Positions 3,187 to 11,166 of a stretch of DNA of 11,166 nucleotides are shown here, in pieces. Below the pieces are notes generated by a model. The model ran no database searches. It saw only the letters and a list, made by a program, of their open reading frames with translations, and had not been told where the DNA came from. The DNA comes from a virus, in the UHGV virus genome UHGV-1660291. One strand, 5' to 3'. The stretch's first letter is position 1. Each line of letters opens with the position of its first letter. A program made the position numbers and the translations under genes.

Positions 3187-3927
3187 ATGCCTGTACCAAA
3201 TCCTGTAATGCCGGTGAAAGGTGCCGGGACCACCCTGTGGGTTTATAAGGGGAGTGGTGACCCTTATGCGAATCCGCTTTCAGACGTTGACTGGTCGCGT
3301 CTGGCAAAAGTTAAAGACCTGACGCCCGGCGAACTGACCGCTGAGTCCTATGACGACAGCTATCTCGATGATGAAGATGCAGACTGGACTGCGACCGGGC
3401 AGGGGCAGAAATCTGCCGGAGATACCAGCTTCACGCTGGCGTGGATGCCCGGAGAGCAGGGGCAGCAGGCGCTGCTGGCGTGGTTTAATGAAGGCGATAC
3501 CCGTGCCTATAAAATCCGCTTCCCGAACGGCACGGTCGATGTGTTCCGTGGCTGGGTCAGCAGTATCGGTAAGGCGGTGACGGCGAAGGAAGTGATCACC
3601 CGCACGGTGAAAGTCACCAATGTGGGACGTCCGTCGATGGCAGAAGATCGCAGCACGGTAACAGCGGCAACCGGTATGACTGTGACGCCTGCCAGCACCT
3701 CGGTGGTGAAAGGGCGGAGCACCACGCTGACCGTGGCATTCCAGCCGGAAGGCGCAACCGACAAGAGCTTCCGTGCGGTGTCTGCAGATAAAACAAAAGC
3801 CACCGTGTCGGTCAGTGGTATGACTATCACCGTGAAAGGTGTTGCTGCAGGCAAGGTCAACATTCCGGTTGTATCCGGTAATGGTGAGTTTGCTGCGGTT
3901 GCAGAAATCAACGTCACCGCCAGTTAA
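3187..3927 (+). CDS. V: Major tail tube protein gpV, with C-terminal Ig-like domain
   Basis: ATG 3187 preceded by GAGGA at 3178-3182; 246 aa ([31 protein letters not shown]...) recognised as lambda V-like; stop TAA 3925-3927. The six-frame ORF starts 10 codons upstream at 3157 inside the U coding region, without a ribosome-binding site. Confidence 0.93.
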
Positions 3928-3942
3928 TCCGGAGAGTCAGCG

Positions 3943-4365
3943 ATGTTCCTGAAAACCGAATCATTTGAACATAACGGTGTGACCGTCACGCTTTCTGAAC
4001 TGTCAGCCCTGCAGCGTATTGAGCATCTCGCCCTGATGAAACGGCAGGCAGAACAGGCGGAGTCAGACAGCAACCGGAAGTTTACTGTGGAAGACGCCAT
4101 CAGAACCGGCGCGTTTCTGGTGGCGATGTCCCTGTGGCATAACCATCCGCAGAAGACGCAGATGCCGTCCATGAATGAAGCCGTTAAACAGATTGAGCAG
4201 GAAGTGCTTACCACCTGGCCCACGGAGGCAATTTCTCATGCTGAAAACGTGGTGTACCGGCTGTCTGGTATGTATGAGTTTGTGGTGAATAATGCCCCTG
4301 AACAGACAGAGGACGCCGGGCCCGCAGAGCCTGTTTCTGCGGGAAAGTGTTCGACGGTGAGCTGA
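3943..4365 (+). CDS. G: Tail assembly chaperone gpG
   Basis: ATG 3943 preceded by GGAGAG at 3931-3936; 140 aa (MFLKTESFEHNGVTVTLSELSALQRIEHL...) recognised as lambda G-like; stop TGA 4363-4365. Confidence 0.93.
   Translation: MFLKTESFEHNGVTVTLSELSALQRIEHLALMKRQAEQAESDSNRKFTVEDAIRTGAFLVAMSLWHNHPQKTQMPSMNEAVKQIEQEVLTTWPTEAISHAENVVYRLSGMYEFVVNNAPEQTEDAGPAEPVSAGKCSTVS
4341..4347 (+). other. Programmed -1 ribosomal frameshift slippery heptamer G GGA AAG (G to GT)
   Basis: GGGAAAG at 4341-4347, with GGA and AAG in the G frame, lies 16 nt upstream of the G stop codon. The -1 frame is open from 4347 to 4781 and has no convincing ribosome-binding site of its own. Confidence 0.85.
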
Positions 4366-4781
4366 GTTTTGCCCTGAAACTGGCGCGTGAGATGGGGCGA
4401 CCCGACTGGCGTGCCATGCTTGCCGGGATGTCATCCACGGAGTATGCCGACTGGCACCGCTTTTACAGTACCCATTATTTTCATGATGTTCTGCTGGATA
4501 TGCACTTTTCCGGGCTGACGTACACCGTGCTCAGCCTGTTTTTCAGCGATCCGGATATGCATCCGCTGGATTTCAGTTTGCTGAACCGGCGTGAGGCTGA
4601 CGAAGAGCCTGAAGATGATGTGCTGATGCAGAAAGCGGCAGGGCTTGCCGGAGGTGTCCGCTTTGGCCCGGACGGGAATGAAGTTATCCCTACTTCCCCG
4701 GATGTGGAGGACATGACGGAGGATGACGTAATGCTGATGACAGTATCAGAAGGGATCGCAGGAGGAGTCCGGTATGGCTGA
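4347..4781 (+). CDS. T: T segment of tail assembly chaperone gpGT, expressed as a G-T fusion by -1 frameshifting (joined product 3943..4346 + 4347..4781)
   Basis: ORF in the -1 frame relative to G, beginning at the slippery site and ending TGA 4779-4781; translation ...FDGELSFALKLAREMGRPDWRAMLAGMSSTEYADW... recognised as the lambda T region. Confidence 0.85.
   Translation: MFDGELSFALKLAREMGRPDWRAMLAGMSSTEYADWHRFYSTHYFHDVLLDMHFSGLTYTVLSLFFSDPDMHPLDFSLLNRREADEEPEDDVLMQKAAGLAGGVRFGPDGNEVIPTSPDVEDMTEDDVMLMTVSEGIAGGVRYG
4641..4667 (+). repeat. Copy 1 of a duplicated 27-nt / 9-aa motif in the T segment (G-L-A-G-G-V-R-F-G)
   Basis: GGGCTTGCCGGAGGTGTCCGCTTTGGC encodes GLAGGVRFG (T residues 99-107); imperfect direct repeat of 4752-4778. 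Confidence 0.7.
4752..4778 (+). repeat. Copy 2 of the duplicated motif (G-I-A-G-G-V-R-Y-G), the last 9 residues of GT
   Basis: GGGATCGCAGGAGGAGTCCGGTATGGC encodes GIAGGVRYG and also contains the H ribosome-binding site (GGAGGA 4761-4766) and the H start codon (ATG 4774-4776). Confidence 0.7.
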
Positions 4782-7335
4782 ACCGGTAGGCGATCTGGTC
4801 GTTGATTTAAGTCTGGATGCGGCCAGATTTGACGAGCAGATGGCCAGAGTCAGGCGTCATTTTTCCGGTACGGAAACTGATGCGAAAAAAACAGCGGCAG
4901 TCGTTGAACAGTCGCTGAGCCGACAGGCGCTGGCTGCACAGAAAGCGGGGATTTCCGTCGGGCAGTATAAAGCCGCCATGCGTATGCTGCCTGCACAGTT
5001 CACCGACGTGGCCACGCAGCTTGCAGGCGGGCAAAGCCCGTGGCTGATCCTGCTGCAACAGGGGGGTCAGGTTAAGGACTCCTTCGGCGGGATGATCCCC
5101 ATGTTCAGGGGGCTTGCCGGTGCGATCACCCTGCCGATGGTGGGGGCCACCTCGCTGGCGGTGGCGACCGGTGCGCTGGCGTATGCCTGGTATCAGGGCA
5201 ACTCAACCCTGTCCGATTTCAACAAAACGCTGGTCCTTTCCGGCAATCAGGCGGGACTGACGGCAGATCGTATGCTGGTCCTGTCCAGAGCCGGGCAGGC
5301 GGCAGGGCTGACGTTTAACCAGACCAGCGAGTCACTCAGCGCACTGGTTAAGGCGGGGGTAAGCGGTGAGGCTCAGATTGCGTCCATCAGCCAGAGTGTG
5401 GCGCGTTTCTCCTCTGCATCCGGCGTGGAGGTGGACAAGGTCGCTGAAGCCTTCGGGAAGCTGACCACAGACCCGACGTCGGGGCTGACGGCGATGGCAC
5501 GCCAGTTCCATAACGTGACGGCGGAGCAGATTGCGTATGTTGCTCAGTTGCAGCGTTCCGGCGATGAAGCCGGGGCATTGCAGGCGGCGAACGAGGCCGC
5601 AACGAAAGGGTTTGATGACCAGACCCGCCGCCTGAAAGAGAACATGGGCACGCTGGAGACCTGGGCAGACAGGACTGCGCGGGCATTCAAATCCATGTGG
5701 GATGCGGTGCTGGATATTGGTCGTCCTGATACCGCGCAGGAGATGCTGATTAAGGCAGAGGCTGCGTTTAAGAAAGCAGACGACATCTGGAATCTGCGCA
5801 AGGATGATTATTTTGTTAACGATGAAGCGCGGGCGCGTTACTGGGATGATCGTGAAAAGGCCCGTCTTGCGCTTGAAGCCGCCCGAAAGAAGGCTGAGCA
5901 GCAGACTCAACAGGACAAAAATGCGCAGCAGCAGAGCGATACCGAAGCGTCACGGCTGAAATATACCGAAGAGGCGCAGAAGGCTTACGAACGGCTGCAG
6001 ACGCCGCTGGAGAAATATACCGCCCGTCAGGAAGAACTGAACAAGGCACTGAAAGACGGGAAAATCCTGCAGGCGGATTACAACACGCTGATGGCGGCGG
6101 CGAAAAAGGATTATGAAGCGACGCTGAAAAAGCCGAAACAGTCCGGCGTGAAGGTGTCTGCGGGCGATCGTCAGGAAGACAGTGCTCATGCTGCCCTGCT
6201 GACGCTTCAGGCAGAACTCCGGACGCTGGAGAAGCATGCCGGAGCGAATGAGAAAATCAGCCAGCAGCGCCGGGATTTGTGGAAGGCGGAGAGCCAGTTC
6301 GCGGTACTGGAGGAGGCGGCGCAACGTCGCCAGCTGTCTGCACAGGAGAAATCCCTGCTGGCGCATAAAGATGAGACGCTGGAGTACAAACGCCAGCTGG
6401 CTGCACTTGGCGACAAGGTTACGTATCAGGAGCGCCTGAACGCGCTGGCGCAGCAGGCGGATAAATTCGCACAGCAGCAACGGGCAAAACGGGCCGCCAT
6501 TGATGCGAAAAGCCGGGGGCTGACTGACCGGCAGGCAGAACGGGAAGCCACGGAACAGCGCCTGAAGGAACAGTATGGCGATAATCCGCTGGCGCTGAAT
6601 AACGTCATGTCAGAGCAGAAAAAGACCTGGGCGGCTGAAGACCAGCTTCGCGGGAACTGGATGGCAGGCCTGAAGTCCGGCTGGAGTGAGTGGGAAGAGA
6701 GCGCCACGGACAGTATGTCGCAGGTAAAAAGTGCAGCCACGCAGACCTTTGATGGTATTGCACAGAATATGGCGGCGATGCTGACCGGCAGTGAGCAGAA
6801 CTGGCGCAGCTTTACCCGTTCCGTGCTGTCCATGATGACAGAAATTCTGCTTAAGCAGGCAATGGTGGGGATTGTCGGGAGTATCGGCAGCGCCATTGGC
6901 GGGGCTGTTGGTGGCGGCGCATCAGCGTCAGGCGGTACAGCCATTCAGGCAGCTGCGGCGAAACTCCATTTTGCGACCGGGGGATTTACGGGAACCGGCG
7001 GCAAATATGAGCCAGCGGGGATTGTTCACCGTGGTGAATTTGTCTTCACGAAGGAGGCAACCAGCCGGATTGGCGTGGGGAATCTCTACCGGCTGATGCG
7101 CGGCTATGCCACCGGTGGTTATGTCGGTGGCACCGGAAGTCCGGCGCAAATGCGGCGTTCAGAGGGTATCAGGTTTGAGCAGAACAACAACGTGGTGATT
7201 CAGAACGACGGTACGAATGGTCTGCCAGGTCCACAGATGATGAAAGCAGTGTATGACATGGCCCGCAAGGGTGCCCGTGATGAAATTCAGACACAGATGC
7301 GTGATGGTGGCCTGTTCTCCGGAGGTGGACGATGA
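4774..7335 (+). CDS. H: Tail tape measure protein gpH
   Basis: 853-codon ORF; ATG 4774 with GGAGGA at 4761-4766; N-terminus MAEPVGDLVVDLSLDAARFDEQMARV... recognised as lambda H-like. Long central Q/A/E/K/R-rich (coiled-coil-like) region and a Gly-rich C-terminal segment. Stop TGA 7333-7335 overlaps the M start. Confidence 0.95.
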   Translation: MAEPVGDLVVDLSLDAARFDEQMARVRRHFSGTETDAKKTAAVVEQSLSRQALAAQKAGISVGQYKAAMRMLPAQFTDVATQLAGGQSPWLILLQQGGQVKDSFGGMIPMFRGLAGAITLPMVGATSLAVATGALAYAWYQGNSTLSDFNKTLVLSGNQAGLTADRMLVLSRAGQAAGLTFNQTSESLSALVKAGVSGEAQIASISQSVARFSSASGVEVDKVAEAFGKLTTDPTSGLTAMARQFHNVTAEQIAYVAQLQRSGDEAGALQAANEAATKGFDDQTRRLKENMGTLETWADRTARAFKSMWDAVLDIGRPDTAQEMLIKAEAAFKKADDIWNLRKDDYFVNDEARARYWDDREKARLALEAARKKAEQQTQQDKNAQQQSDTEASRLKYTEEAQKAYERLQTPLEKYTARQEELNKALKDGKILQADYNTLMAAAKKDYEATLKKPKQSGVKVSAGDRQEDSAHAALLTLQAELRTLEKHAGANEKISQQRRDLWKAESQFAVLEEAAQRRQLSAQEKSLLAHKDETLEYKRQLAALGDKVTYQERLNALAQQADKFAQQQRAKRAAIDAKSRGLTDRQAEREATEQRLKEQYGDNPLALNNVMSEQKKTWAAEDQLRGNWMAGLKSGWSEWEESATDSMSQVKSAATQTFDGIAQNMAAMLTGSEQNWRSFTRSVLSMMTEILLKQAMVGIVGSIGSAIGGAVGGGASASGGTAIQAAAAKLHFATGGFTGTGGKYEPAGIVHRGEFVFTKEATSRIGVGNLYRLMRGYATGGYVGGTGSPAQMRRSEGIRFEQNNNVVIQNDGTNGLPGPQMMKAVYDMARKGARDEIQTQMRDGGLFSGGGR

Positions 7336-9665: not shown

Positions 9666-9687
9666 AAACCGCCTGCGGGCGGTTTTG
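9666..9687 (+). terminator. I/J intergenic hairpin with T-tract (terminator-like)
   Basis: AAACCGCC (9666-9673), loop TGCG (9674-9677), GGCGGTTT (9678-9685): 8-bp stem whose 3' arm runs into TTTT, 20 nt upstream of the J start. Confidence 0.4.
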
Positions 9688-9707
9688 TCGTTTATGGAGC
9701 GTGACGA

Positions 9708-11166
9708 ATGGGTAAAGGCAGCAGTAAGGGGCATACCCCGCGCGAAGCGAAGGACAACCTGAAGTCCACGCAGCTGCTGAGTGTGATCGATGCCATCAGC
9801 GAAGGGCCGGTTGAAGGTCCGGTGGATGGATTAAAAAGCGTGCTGCTGAACAGTACGCCGGTGCTGGACAGTGAGGGGAATACCAATATATCCGGCGTCA
9901 CGGTGGTGTTCCTGGCCGGTGAGCAGGAGCAGACACCGCCGGAGGGATTTGAATCCTCCGGCTCCGAGACGGTGCTCGGTACAGAAGTGAAATATGACAC
10001 GCCGATCACCCGGACCATCACGTCGGCAAACATCGACCGTCTGCGTTTTACTTTCGGCGTGCAGGCACTGGTGGAAACCACCTCAAAGGGGGACAGGAAT
10101 CCATCGGAAGTCCGCCTGCTGGTTCAGATACAACGTAACGGTGGCTGGGTGACGGAAAAAGACATCACCATTAAGGGTAAAACCACTTCACAGTATCTGG
10201 CCTCGGTGGTGGTGGATAACCTGCCGCCGCGCCCGTTTAATATCCGGATGCGCAGGATGACGCCGGACAGCACCACAGACCAGCTGCAGAACAAAACGCT
10301 CTGGTCGTCATACACCGAAATCATCGATGTGAAACAGTGCTACCCGAACACGGCACTGGTCGGCGTACAGGTGGACTCGGAGCAGTTCGGCAGCCAGCAG
10401 GTGAGTCGTAATTATCATCTTCGCGGGCGCATTCTGCAGGTGCCGTCGAACTATAACCCGCAGACGCGGCAATACAGCGGTATCTGGGACGGAACGTTTA
10501 AGCCAGCATACAGCGACAACATGGCCTGGTGTCTGTGGGATATGCTGACCCATCCGCGCTACGGCATGGGGAAACGTCTTGGTGCAGCAGATGTGGACAA
10601 ATGGGCGCTGTACGTTATCGGCCAGTACTGCGACCAGTCTGTACCGAATGGTTTTGGTGGTACGGAGCCGCGCATCACCTGTAATGCGTACCTGACCACG
10701 CAGCGTAAGGCATGGGATGTGCTCAGCGATTTCTGCTCGGCGATGCGCTGTATGCCGGTATGGAACGGACAGACGCTGACGTTCGTGCAGGACCGACCCT
10801 CGGATAAGGTGTGGACCTATAACCGCAGTAATGTGGTGATGCCGGATGATGGTGCGCCGTTCCGCTACAGCTTCAGCGCCCTGAAGGACCGCCATAATGC
10901 CGTTGAGGTGAACTGGATTGACCCGAATAACGGCTGGGAGACGGCGACAGAGCTTGTGGAGGACACGCAGGCCATTGCCCGTTACGGTCGTAACGTCACG
11001 AAGATGGATGCTTTTGGCTGTACCAGCCGGGGGCAGGCACACCGCGCCGGGCTGTGGCTGATTAAAACAGAACTGCTGGAAACGCAGACCGTGGACTTCA
11101 GCGTGGGTGCCGAAGGGCTTCGCCATGTACCGGGCGATGTCATTGAAATCTGCGATGATGACTATG
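9708..11166 (+). CDS. J: Tip attachment protein / central tail fibre gpJ, 5' portion (continues beyond the window end)
   Basis: ATG 9708 preceded by GGAG at 9696-9699; the frame stays open to the window end (486 codons); N-terminus MGKGSSKGHTPREAKDNLKSTQLLSVIDAISEGP... recognised as lambda J-like. Confidence 0.93.
   Translation, partial: MGKGSSKGHTPREAKDNLKSTQLLSVIDAISEGPVEGPVDGLKSVLLNSTPVLDSEGNTNISGVTVVFLAGEQEQTPPEGFESSGSETVLGTEVKYDTPITRTITSANIDRLRFTFGVQALVETTSKGDRNPSEVRLLVQIQRNGGWVTEKDITIKGKTTSQYLASVVVDNLPPRPFNIRMRRMTPDSTTDQLQNKTLWSSYTEIIDVKQCYPNTALVGVQVDSEQFGSQQVSRNYHLRGRILQVPSNYNPQTRQYSGIWDGTFKPAYSDNMAWCLWDMLTHPRYGMGKRLGAADVDKWALYVIGQYCDQSVPNGFGGTEPRITCNAYLTTQRKAWDVLSDFCSAMRCMPVWNGQTLTFVQDRPSDKVWTYNRSNVVMPDDGAPFRYSFSALKDRHNAVEVNWIDPNNGWETATELVEDTQAIARYGRNVTKMDAFGCTSRGQAHRAGLWLIKTELLETQTVDFSVGAEGLRHVPGDVIEICDDDY

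Follow-up and report, generated by a model that had tools for sequence, protein, structure and literature searches.

A C-terminal module duplicated in the T segment of the lambda-type tail assembly chaperone gpGT, its last copy holding the initiation region of the tape measure gene

The T segment and its repeated module

We analysed a stretch of 11,166 nucleotides from the virus genome UHGV-1660291 (the window), which carries the tail genes V, G, T and H in the arrangement of phage lambda. At the C-terminus of T, the segment that follows G in the tail assembly chaperone gpGT, a peptide module occurs twice in tandem, and the second copy also holds the Shine-Dalgarno sequence (SD) and the start codon of the tape measure gene H. 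The features of the locus are as follows.

3187-3927, plus strand: gene V, major tail tube protein (Pfam Phage_TTP_12, 235 bits, and Big_2; lambda annotation)
3943-4365, plus strand: gene G, tail assembly chaperone, the G domain of gpG and gpGT (PF06894 Phage_TAC_2, 206.9 bits; annotated in lambda and relatives)
4341-4347, plus strand: slippery heptamer G GGA AAG of the -1 frameshift from G to T (read in the sequence; the phi80 record annotates the same site)
4347-4781, plus strand: T segment of gpGT, 144 codons and the stop codon TGA at 4779-4781 (PF06223, 54.3 bits, residues 29-104)
4602-4667, plus strand: module 1 (internal), PEDDVLMQKAAGLAGGVRFG and the acidic residues before it (module profile, 38.8 bits)
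4650-4665, plus strand: SD-like GGAGG (4650-4654) and TTG (4663-4665) within module 1, with the spacing of copy 2 and in the H frame
4668-4712, plus strand: variable inter-module linker, PDGNEVIPTSPDVED (mean pairwise amino acid identity among two-copy lineages 35%, range 13-80%)
4713-4778, plus strand: module 2 (terminal), MTEDDVMLMTVSEGIAGGVRYG (module profile, 34.5 bits)
4760-4765, plus strand: SD of H, AGGAGG, in the Ala-Gly-Gly codons GCA GGA GGA of module 2
4774-4776, plus strand: start codon ATG of H, made up of AT from Tyr TAT and G from Gly GGC
4774-7335, plus strand: gene H, tape measure protein, 853 aa (TMP_2, 235 bits; Tape_meas_lam_C, 76 bits)

Both cores of the repeat are read in the T (-1) frame. 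Copy 1 at 4641-4667 (GGGCTTGCCGGAGGTGTCCGCTTTGGC) encodes GLAGGVRFG and copy 2 at 4752-4778 (GGGATCGCAGGAGGAGTCCGGTATGGC) encodes GIAGGVRYG, with 21 of 27 nucleotides and 7 of 9 amino acids identical. An earlier note on this DNA had placed the two copies, a ribosome-binding site GGAGGA (4761-4766) and the H start codon (4774-4776) at these positions, and re-reading the sequence showed all of them to be correct. The repeat is beyond chance. Of 1000 shuffled versions of T, two gave a pair of 9-mers with seven identities, the best ungapped self-alignment of T (DEEPEDDVLMQKAAGLAGGVRFG with DMTEDDVMLMTVSEGIAGGVRYG) scored 56 against 24 +/- 4 for shuffles (maximum 49), and the 18-nt pattern GGAGGNGTCCGNTWTGGC has two occurrences in the window and none in 200 shuffles.

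The similarity extends beyond the nine-codon cores. Using a repeat search we obtained a 47-nt in-register direct repeat (4621-4667 and 4732-4778) with 70% identity, and at the protein level the repeated unit comprises ~22 amino acids, encoded at 4602-4667 and 4713-4778, of the form [P/T]EDDV(M)LM-x4-G[L/I]AGGVR[F/Y]G. Its make-up is an acidic run and a short D-D-x-L-M-x-x-A helix, followed by [E/A]-G-[I/L]-x-G-G-[V/I]-R-[Y/F]-[G/V]; the module profile behind the bit scores given above was built from 46 homologous modules. The earlier note had described the 28 residues between the copies as an acidic linker. That stretch reads as it was written, but since the unit spans ~22 residues and not nine, part of it (TEDDVMLMTVSE) is the N-terminal half of the second unit. 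The locus thus holds a tandem duplication of a C-terminal T-domain module, with a spacing of 111 nt or 37 codons.

The assignment of T rests on several lines of evidence. The segment scores 189.6 bits against the NCBIfam equivalog model TIGR01715 (phage_lam_T, 'phage tail assembly protein T'; cut-off 77.35), in two stretches, and its PF06223 Phage_tail_T score exceeds the cut-off of 25.9 bits. It follows the G-type chaperone gene in the -1 frame, is entered via the slippery heptamer, and the gene order V, G, T, H places it between the major tail protein and the tape measure. H shares the frame of G (4774 - 3943 = 831 = 277 x 3), with T as the sole -1-frame segment between them. As in lambda gpGT (J02459), the window shows the -1 frameshift site, the order G-T-H and an 8-nt T/H overlap. 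Window positions 3900-5000 are 99% identical to lambda 9668-10768 (lambda coordinate = window coordinate + 5768), and likewise to many lambdoid phages. The two T segments are 97.9% identical; both motif copies are unchanged, and the differences are confined to the inter-module linker, which reads IPTSPDVED in the window and IPASPDVAD in lambda.

The last module as initiation region of the tape measure gene

Copy 2 is, as the earlier note had it, the C-terminus of gpGT and at the same time the site of H initiation (SD 4760-4765, start codon 4774-4776, T stop codon 4779-4781). Eight nucleotides separate GGAGG from the ATG, the T stop codon lies 5 nt downstream of that ATG, and the ATG opens the 853-aa open reading frame (ORF) with its tape measure protein (TMP) domains. 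The lambda record J02459 annotates H from the same codon.

Loci, 274 in all, were gathered by tblastn on phage records, by scans of genomes and with single proteins, and with a DNA pattern neutral to codon choice; a viral scan with the alignment A3 yielded lambda-like loci only. Junctions extracted with a hidden Markov model (HMM) of T on six-frame translations amounted to 156 unique DNAs, forming 43 clusters at 90% and 21 clusters at 70% T identity. In all ten phage loci checked where the module ends T-frame translation, the TMP start, annotated or taken from the longest ORF, lies within the module, and the Gly-Gly codons read GGAGG. In 42 of the 43 lineages defined at 90%, the start is offset by +13 from the first Gly codon, in agreement with the annotated TMP starts of phi80, mEp237, Fels-1, mEp460, HY01, mEp043 and lambda. 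The +13 triplet is ATG in 19 and TTG in two of the 21 clusters at 70%, and it opens a long TMP ORF in every one of them.

Codon usage in the last module follows the needs of initiation. In 19 of the 21 clusters at 70%, the first Gly is encoded by GGA, against a background of 12% of Gly codons in the same genes (P ~7e-16), and the Tyr codon is TAT in 18 of 18 against a background of 57%. The codon after the aromatic residue begins with G in all 21 clusters although the residue it encodes may be G, V, D or E. Where tyrosine is replaced, a start codon is still formed: His CAT-G gives ATG in Pantoea prophages, while Phe TTT-G, Val GTT-G and Leu CTT-G give TTG. A search with the pattern EGIxGGxRYGP, in which the Gly and Tyr codons were left free, returned GGA in 66 and TAT in 67 of 67 cases. 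These codon choices point to a clear nucleotide-level constraint beyond what the peptide needs, with GGA-GGN serving as SD, TAT-G as ATG and NTT-G as TTG.

The H SD is unpaired in the predicted local fold, and neither the H initiation region nor copy 1 forms RNA structure beyond the stability of shuffled sequences (z -0.26 and +0.80). SDs and start codons embedded in the 3' end of the preceding ORF are in themselves frequent in phage and bacterial operons, as in ATGA or TGATG stop-start overlaps. The T/H junction shares this layout, with AGGAGG and ATG of H within the last six codons of T. It differs in that the overlapped codons specify the most conserved motif of the upstream protein, in a geometry fixed down to ~32% identity, and in that the upstream frame is read by only about one ribosome in 30 (PMC5009743; G:GT ratio ~30:1), so that classical termination-reinitiation coupling would not supply H. 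From this low occupancy of the T frame we infer that H needs an autonomous site. About 29 of 30 ribosomes stop at the end of G, ~410 nt upstream of the H start, and H would be initiated de novo at its strong SD rather than by coupling to T translation.

In the mEp460 record a rho-independent terminator is annotated within the T gene (L004 1707-1724), ~80 nt upstream of the TMP start. In several prophage loci (L094, L129, L071, L155 and others; 161, 350, 400 and 211 aa) the TMP ORF starting in the T module is shortened, which suggests decaying prophages; such loci were not used as evidence of function.

Copy number, origin and peptide constraint

In T homologues with at least 62% identity both copies are retained, and the stretch that separates them varies. 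The columns invariant among close homologues include L93, K96, G102, G103, R105 and G107 around the first copy and L130, S134, I137, G139, G140, R142 and Y143 around the second. A profile search of 1.8 billion representatives yielded 108 relatives, and the matches of the distant ones end right after module 1: these proteins terminate in a single unit, e.g. ...DDEPDDDSLMAVAEGITGGIRYGPAD, ...SDEQLMSIAESIPGGVRYVPASW and ...TDEELMHLGEGISGGVRYGPDSQPGH. In the broad alignment, the residues conserved at 90% or more include G102, G103 and R105 of the module as well as M28, E32, D51, F54, F76 and L78, and W36 is the sole fully invariant residue. The 111 positions of TIGR01715 likewise contain one module, and lambda T matches the last 23 positions twice.

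Among 50%-identity representatives with a T body and a terminal module, 28 have a single module (two of these being truncated lambda-type variants) and two have a double one, the lambda group and the protein P0144. Single-module T is found in the isolated lambdoid phages phi80, HK225, mEp237, mEp043, mEp213 and mEp460, as well as in the prophage-derived Fels-1 and cdtI, in Klebsiella Kp4865-4 and in Vibrio HY01. Compared with the window, phi80, HK225, mEp237, mEp043/mEp213, Fels-1, mEp460, cdtI and HY01 have the same T body and module with the TMP SD and start within it; single-module T proteins carry the one module and short variable tails after R-Y-G (PAD, PDGSG, PDSEPGH), and in HY01 the residues L-E (CTT GAG) provide a TTG start.

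These comparisons identify the module as the C-terminal hallmark of T proteins (PF06223/TIGR01715). Members normally have it once, which is probably also the ancestral condition, and its doubling is a derived character of the lambda/Stx clade. The conservation check proposed in the earlier note therefore had a divided outcome, in that the motif is highly conserved among related T segments while its duplication is not general. As regards the duplication, the note's own refuting condition applies: phi80, HK225, mEp237, mEp043 and mEp460 are viable with one copy, so two copies are no requirement for T function in the family.

P0144, which is 42% identical to the window T, has two modules (EGIAGGTRFV ... 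CNIAGGVRYG) at a spacing of 28 residues with a shorter, unrelated linker, and its duplication may be independent. Another candidate, P0162 (3346 aa, 23 T-profile matches), was rejected as a relative. It is a Calx-beta-like repeat protein whose VSGGTRFATD repeat contains VSGGTRF by chance.

The internal copy retains traces of a former terminal position. The sequence 3' of copy 1, GGCCCGGACGG (G-P-D-G), resembles the T end and H start of the single-copy phage mEp237, GGCCCAGACGG. On the simplest reading, copy 1 would be the ancestral terminal module with its start codon lost by a TAT to TTT change, and its GGAGG and TTG are most likely a fossil of the ancestral tape-measure initiation region, the SD having been erased in other lineages. 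The divergence of the linker to 35% identity indicates that the duplication is old. An N-terminally extended H starting from copy 1 was ruled out, as the frame opened by TTG 4663 closes after 17 codons (LARTGMKLSLLPRMWRT, G/H frame, stop TGA 4714-4716). Several database 'T' proteins end in ...ARTGMKLSPLPRMWRT, i.e. they are frameshifted into the frame of this 17-codon ORF.

The internal copies and some exceptional phages allow the peptide to be viewed apart from initiation. The Arg of the module is present in all 21 clusters at 70% and is encoded by all six Arg codons, and the L-M and E-G-I residues, which lie outside the initiation region, are conserved as well. Codons were compared pairwise among internal copies from nine loci, which stand for seven lineages. 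Differences in the GGVR[FY]G core of copy 1 numbered 123 synonymous versus 18 nonsynonymous, the latter all F/Y; for the core of copy 2 the numbers are 44 and 23. Five of the seven lineages (CP-1639, L274, L276, L277 and L279) have no GGAGG in the internal copy, where Gly-Gly is encoded by GGT-GGT, GGT-GGC or GGT-GGA, and the start codon is gone (TTC-G) in the internal copies of the Stx1 type and of E. albertii.

The converse situation is found in CP-1639, 1720a-02 and related Stx2 phages (junctions at L009 1840-1900 for CP-1639 and L010 1840-1900 for 1720a-02). Here a TGA ends T directly after module 1, the proteins terminating in ...GLAGGVRFGEEGRRL (GEEGRRL in CP-1639 and 1720a-02). The untranslated module 2, LLMVSEDISGGDHDG (ISGGDHDG), has kept GGAGG, the 8-nt spacer and the ATG of the annotated TMP but has lost V, R and Y. 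The use of six codons for Arg, the internal copies and the decay in CP-1639 together argue that the motif is no mere shadow of the initiation region. Judged from these substitution patterns, purifying selection acts on the peptide of both copies and the linker drifts (35% identity), and the peptide and initiation constraints are both real and separable. The idea of the earlier note that one stretch is constrained in two ways is thus borne out family-wide by codon bias, internal copies and CP-1639-type phages.

Apart from these lineages, we noted ~98% lambda-like G-T-H contigs (L014-L028, L039, L045, L057) in assemblies labelled Neobacillus, Oceanobacillus, Kitasatospora, Chromatium, Shewanella, Pseudomonas, Leeuwenhoekiella, Tardiphaga and others, several of whose titles state ~1x coverage. 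The record MW057783, 'Campylobacter phage CJLB-4', is 99% identical to lambda. Both the contigs and this record look like lambda DNA contamination and not like real prophages.

Putative role of the module

An AlphaFold2 model of T, built with 28 homologues, shows a helical body (helices 3-16, 21-26, 30-42, 46-65 and 73-76) with a pLDDT (predicted local distance difference test) of up to 95. A short helix at 90-101 covers DDVLMQKAAGL of module 1, and from residue 102 to the end the chain is modeled as coil with a pLDDT of 56-63, save for a three-residue helical turn at 125-127. In this model the modules look like short linear motifs in a flexible, predicted disordered tail. No sequence relative of T was found in the PDB and no match to the AlphaFold2 model was returned by Foldseek.

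The accessible literature assigns the binding of H to the G domain and that of V to the T domain, which it describes as missing from mature tails (PMC5009743, PMC4493119, citing Xu, Hendrix and Duda 2014). This makes V a likelier partner of the module than H, and as GG-x-R ranks with the best-conserved features of T proteins, our best guess is that the module is a gpV-docking element. It would act as the short linear motif with which T brings gpV to the complex of gpG and gpH, and the second module of lambda would be a second gpV docking site. From the domain-level data and the conservation we regard the balance as roughly even on whether the module docks gpV and the extra copy of lambda adds a second site.

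As one alternative, the peptide might be functionless and conserved only as the T-frame reading of the TMP SD and start, copy 1 being a recent duplicate that has not yet decayed. Much of the pattern fits: the most conserved residues coincide with initiation elements (GG with GGAGG, Y-G with TATG), the aromatic position takes Y, H, F, V or L in step with the NAT and NTT codons that yield ATG or TTG, the only common factor of the residues after it is the G-initial codon, and the TMP start is almost always inside the last module. Yet the Arg that is invariant through six codons sits in the spacer between SD and start, which has no sequence requirement, L-M and E-G-I lie outside the initiation region, the internal copies hold GGVR[FY]G amid many synonymous changes and mostly without an SD, the diverged linker speaks for an old rather than a recent duplication, and in the untranslated copy of CP-1639 it is V, R and Y that decay while SD and ATG stay. 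The comparative data thus appear largely to refute a functionless peptide, and we consider it very unlikely. Copy 1 could instead be a second initiation or ribosome-loading site. It would then either serve a small ORF or, as a standby or pause site, adjust H expression or the folding of gpGT. Both lambda and the window do have GGAGG 8 nt from the TTG of copy 1, and all 40 unique internal copies of the lambda/Stx type use GGA for the first Gly while other synonymous sites vary. Its ORF, however, has just 17 codons and is unconserved (Stx types have 21-24 codons of different sequence at that offset), the start is missing in the Stx1 type and E. albertii and the SD in the five lineages named above, the predicted fold, itself insignificant, pairs part of the copy 1 SD, and GGA in two related lineages is explicable as inheritance from the ancestral terminal module. 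A present-day nucleotide-level role of the copy 1 SD in lambda and Stx types is accordingly unlikely, and as an explanation of the repeat such a site seems to us highly improbable.

A further possibility keeps the peptide function but changes the partner: the modules would bind H, the G-domain spiral (in autoinhibition or release), the tail terminator U or a host factor, and the helical T body would bind V. In its favor, the module sits in a flexible tail apart from the folded helical body in the AlphaFold2 model, and the accessible literature yielded no mapping of the T-V contact to individual residues. The domain assignments cited above speak against it, and the high conservation of GG-x-R (G102, G103 and R105 at 90% or more) is, indirectly, what one would expect of a family-defining interaction. 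We think this possibility unlikely.

The reading we prefer is that of a duplicated C-terminal T module whose last copy is the tape-measure initiation region, whose peptide is separately selected and which likely docks gpV. Several points weigh against it. The lineages with internal copies are few (seven) and mutually related, and GGAGG is still present in the internal copies of the lambda and Stx types. CP-1639-type phages may be defective prophages and thus weak evidence that a single module suffices. The literature assigns gpV binding to T as one domain, which takes in both the module and the helical body (T 1-85). A search for mimicry of V, U, Z, H, M, L, K, I or J, with the module HMM against six frames of the window, matched the two T copies only, and regular-expression scans agreed. 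Taking all of this together, we hold the duplicated, dually constrained and likely gpV-docking module to be the probable explanation. A more elaborate version is tentative and, in our view, somewhat doubtful: the duplication would make gpGT bivalent, holding two gpV side by side and nucleating the first tube ring on gpH/gpG; docking motif and expression signal of the client scaffold, in the same 18 nt, would have been tied to each other in evolution from a time before enterobacterial and Vibrio phages diverged, with G-G and Y-G co-opted from or into SD and ATG.

Part of this picture is textbook lambda, namely the G-T frameshift, the T/H overlap and the domain-level roles of G and T, and embedded initiation regions are common. 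In the accessible literature and the family models T is treated as one gpV-binding domain; here a C-terminal module is delimited that is duplicated and co-encodes the TMP start. No description of the module delineation, of the lambda/Stx duplication or of the family-wide co-encoding with the TMP SD and start was found in the literature searched, including searches with the motif strings. Duplicated short linear motifs in the disordered tails of chaperones are, as a general concept, known to raise valency. By analogy the T module resembles them in being short and conserved, in a predicted disordered tail with variable linkers and a lineage-dependent copy number; it is unlike them in that its partner is deduced from domain-level data. 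We therefore see the finding as a new detail of a very well-known system, dual coding at an overlap combined with a duplicated linear motif, and as unsurprising in kind.

For lambda itself no known fact is overturned. The junction offers a quantifiable example of dual coding with natural controls that part the two constraints, and the homologues supply a natural mutational map in which the peptide role holds L-M, E-G-I, V, R and the aromatic residue, while the initiation role holds the GGA codon, the TAT codon and the G-initial next codon. Recoding or mutating the 3' end of T will also alter H expression, and conversely, which bears on lambda engineering and on the interpretation of T mutants. 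The presence of two copies carries less significance, one being the norm. The analysis as a whole sharpens the question of how gpGT recruits gpV. Within the domain-level picture of tail nucleation, the 22-residue, highly conserved and probably disordered module is the obvious candidate for the V-docking element.

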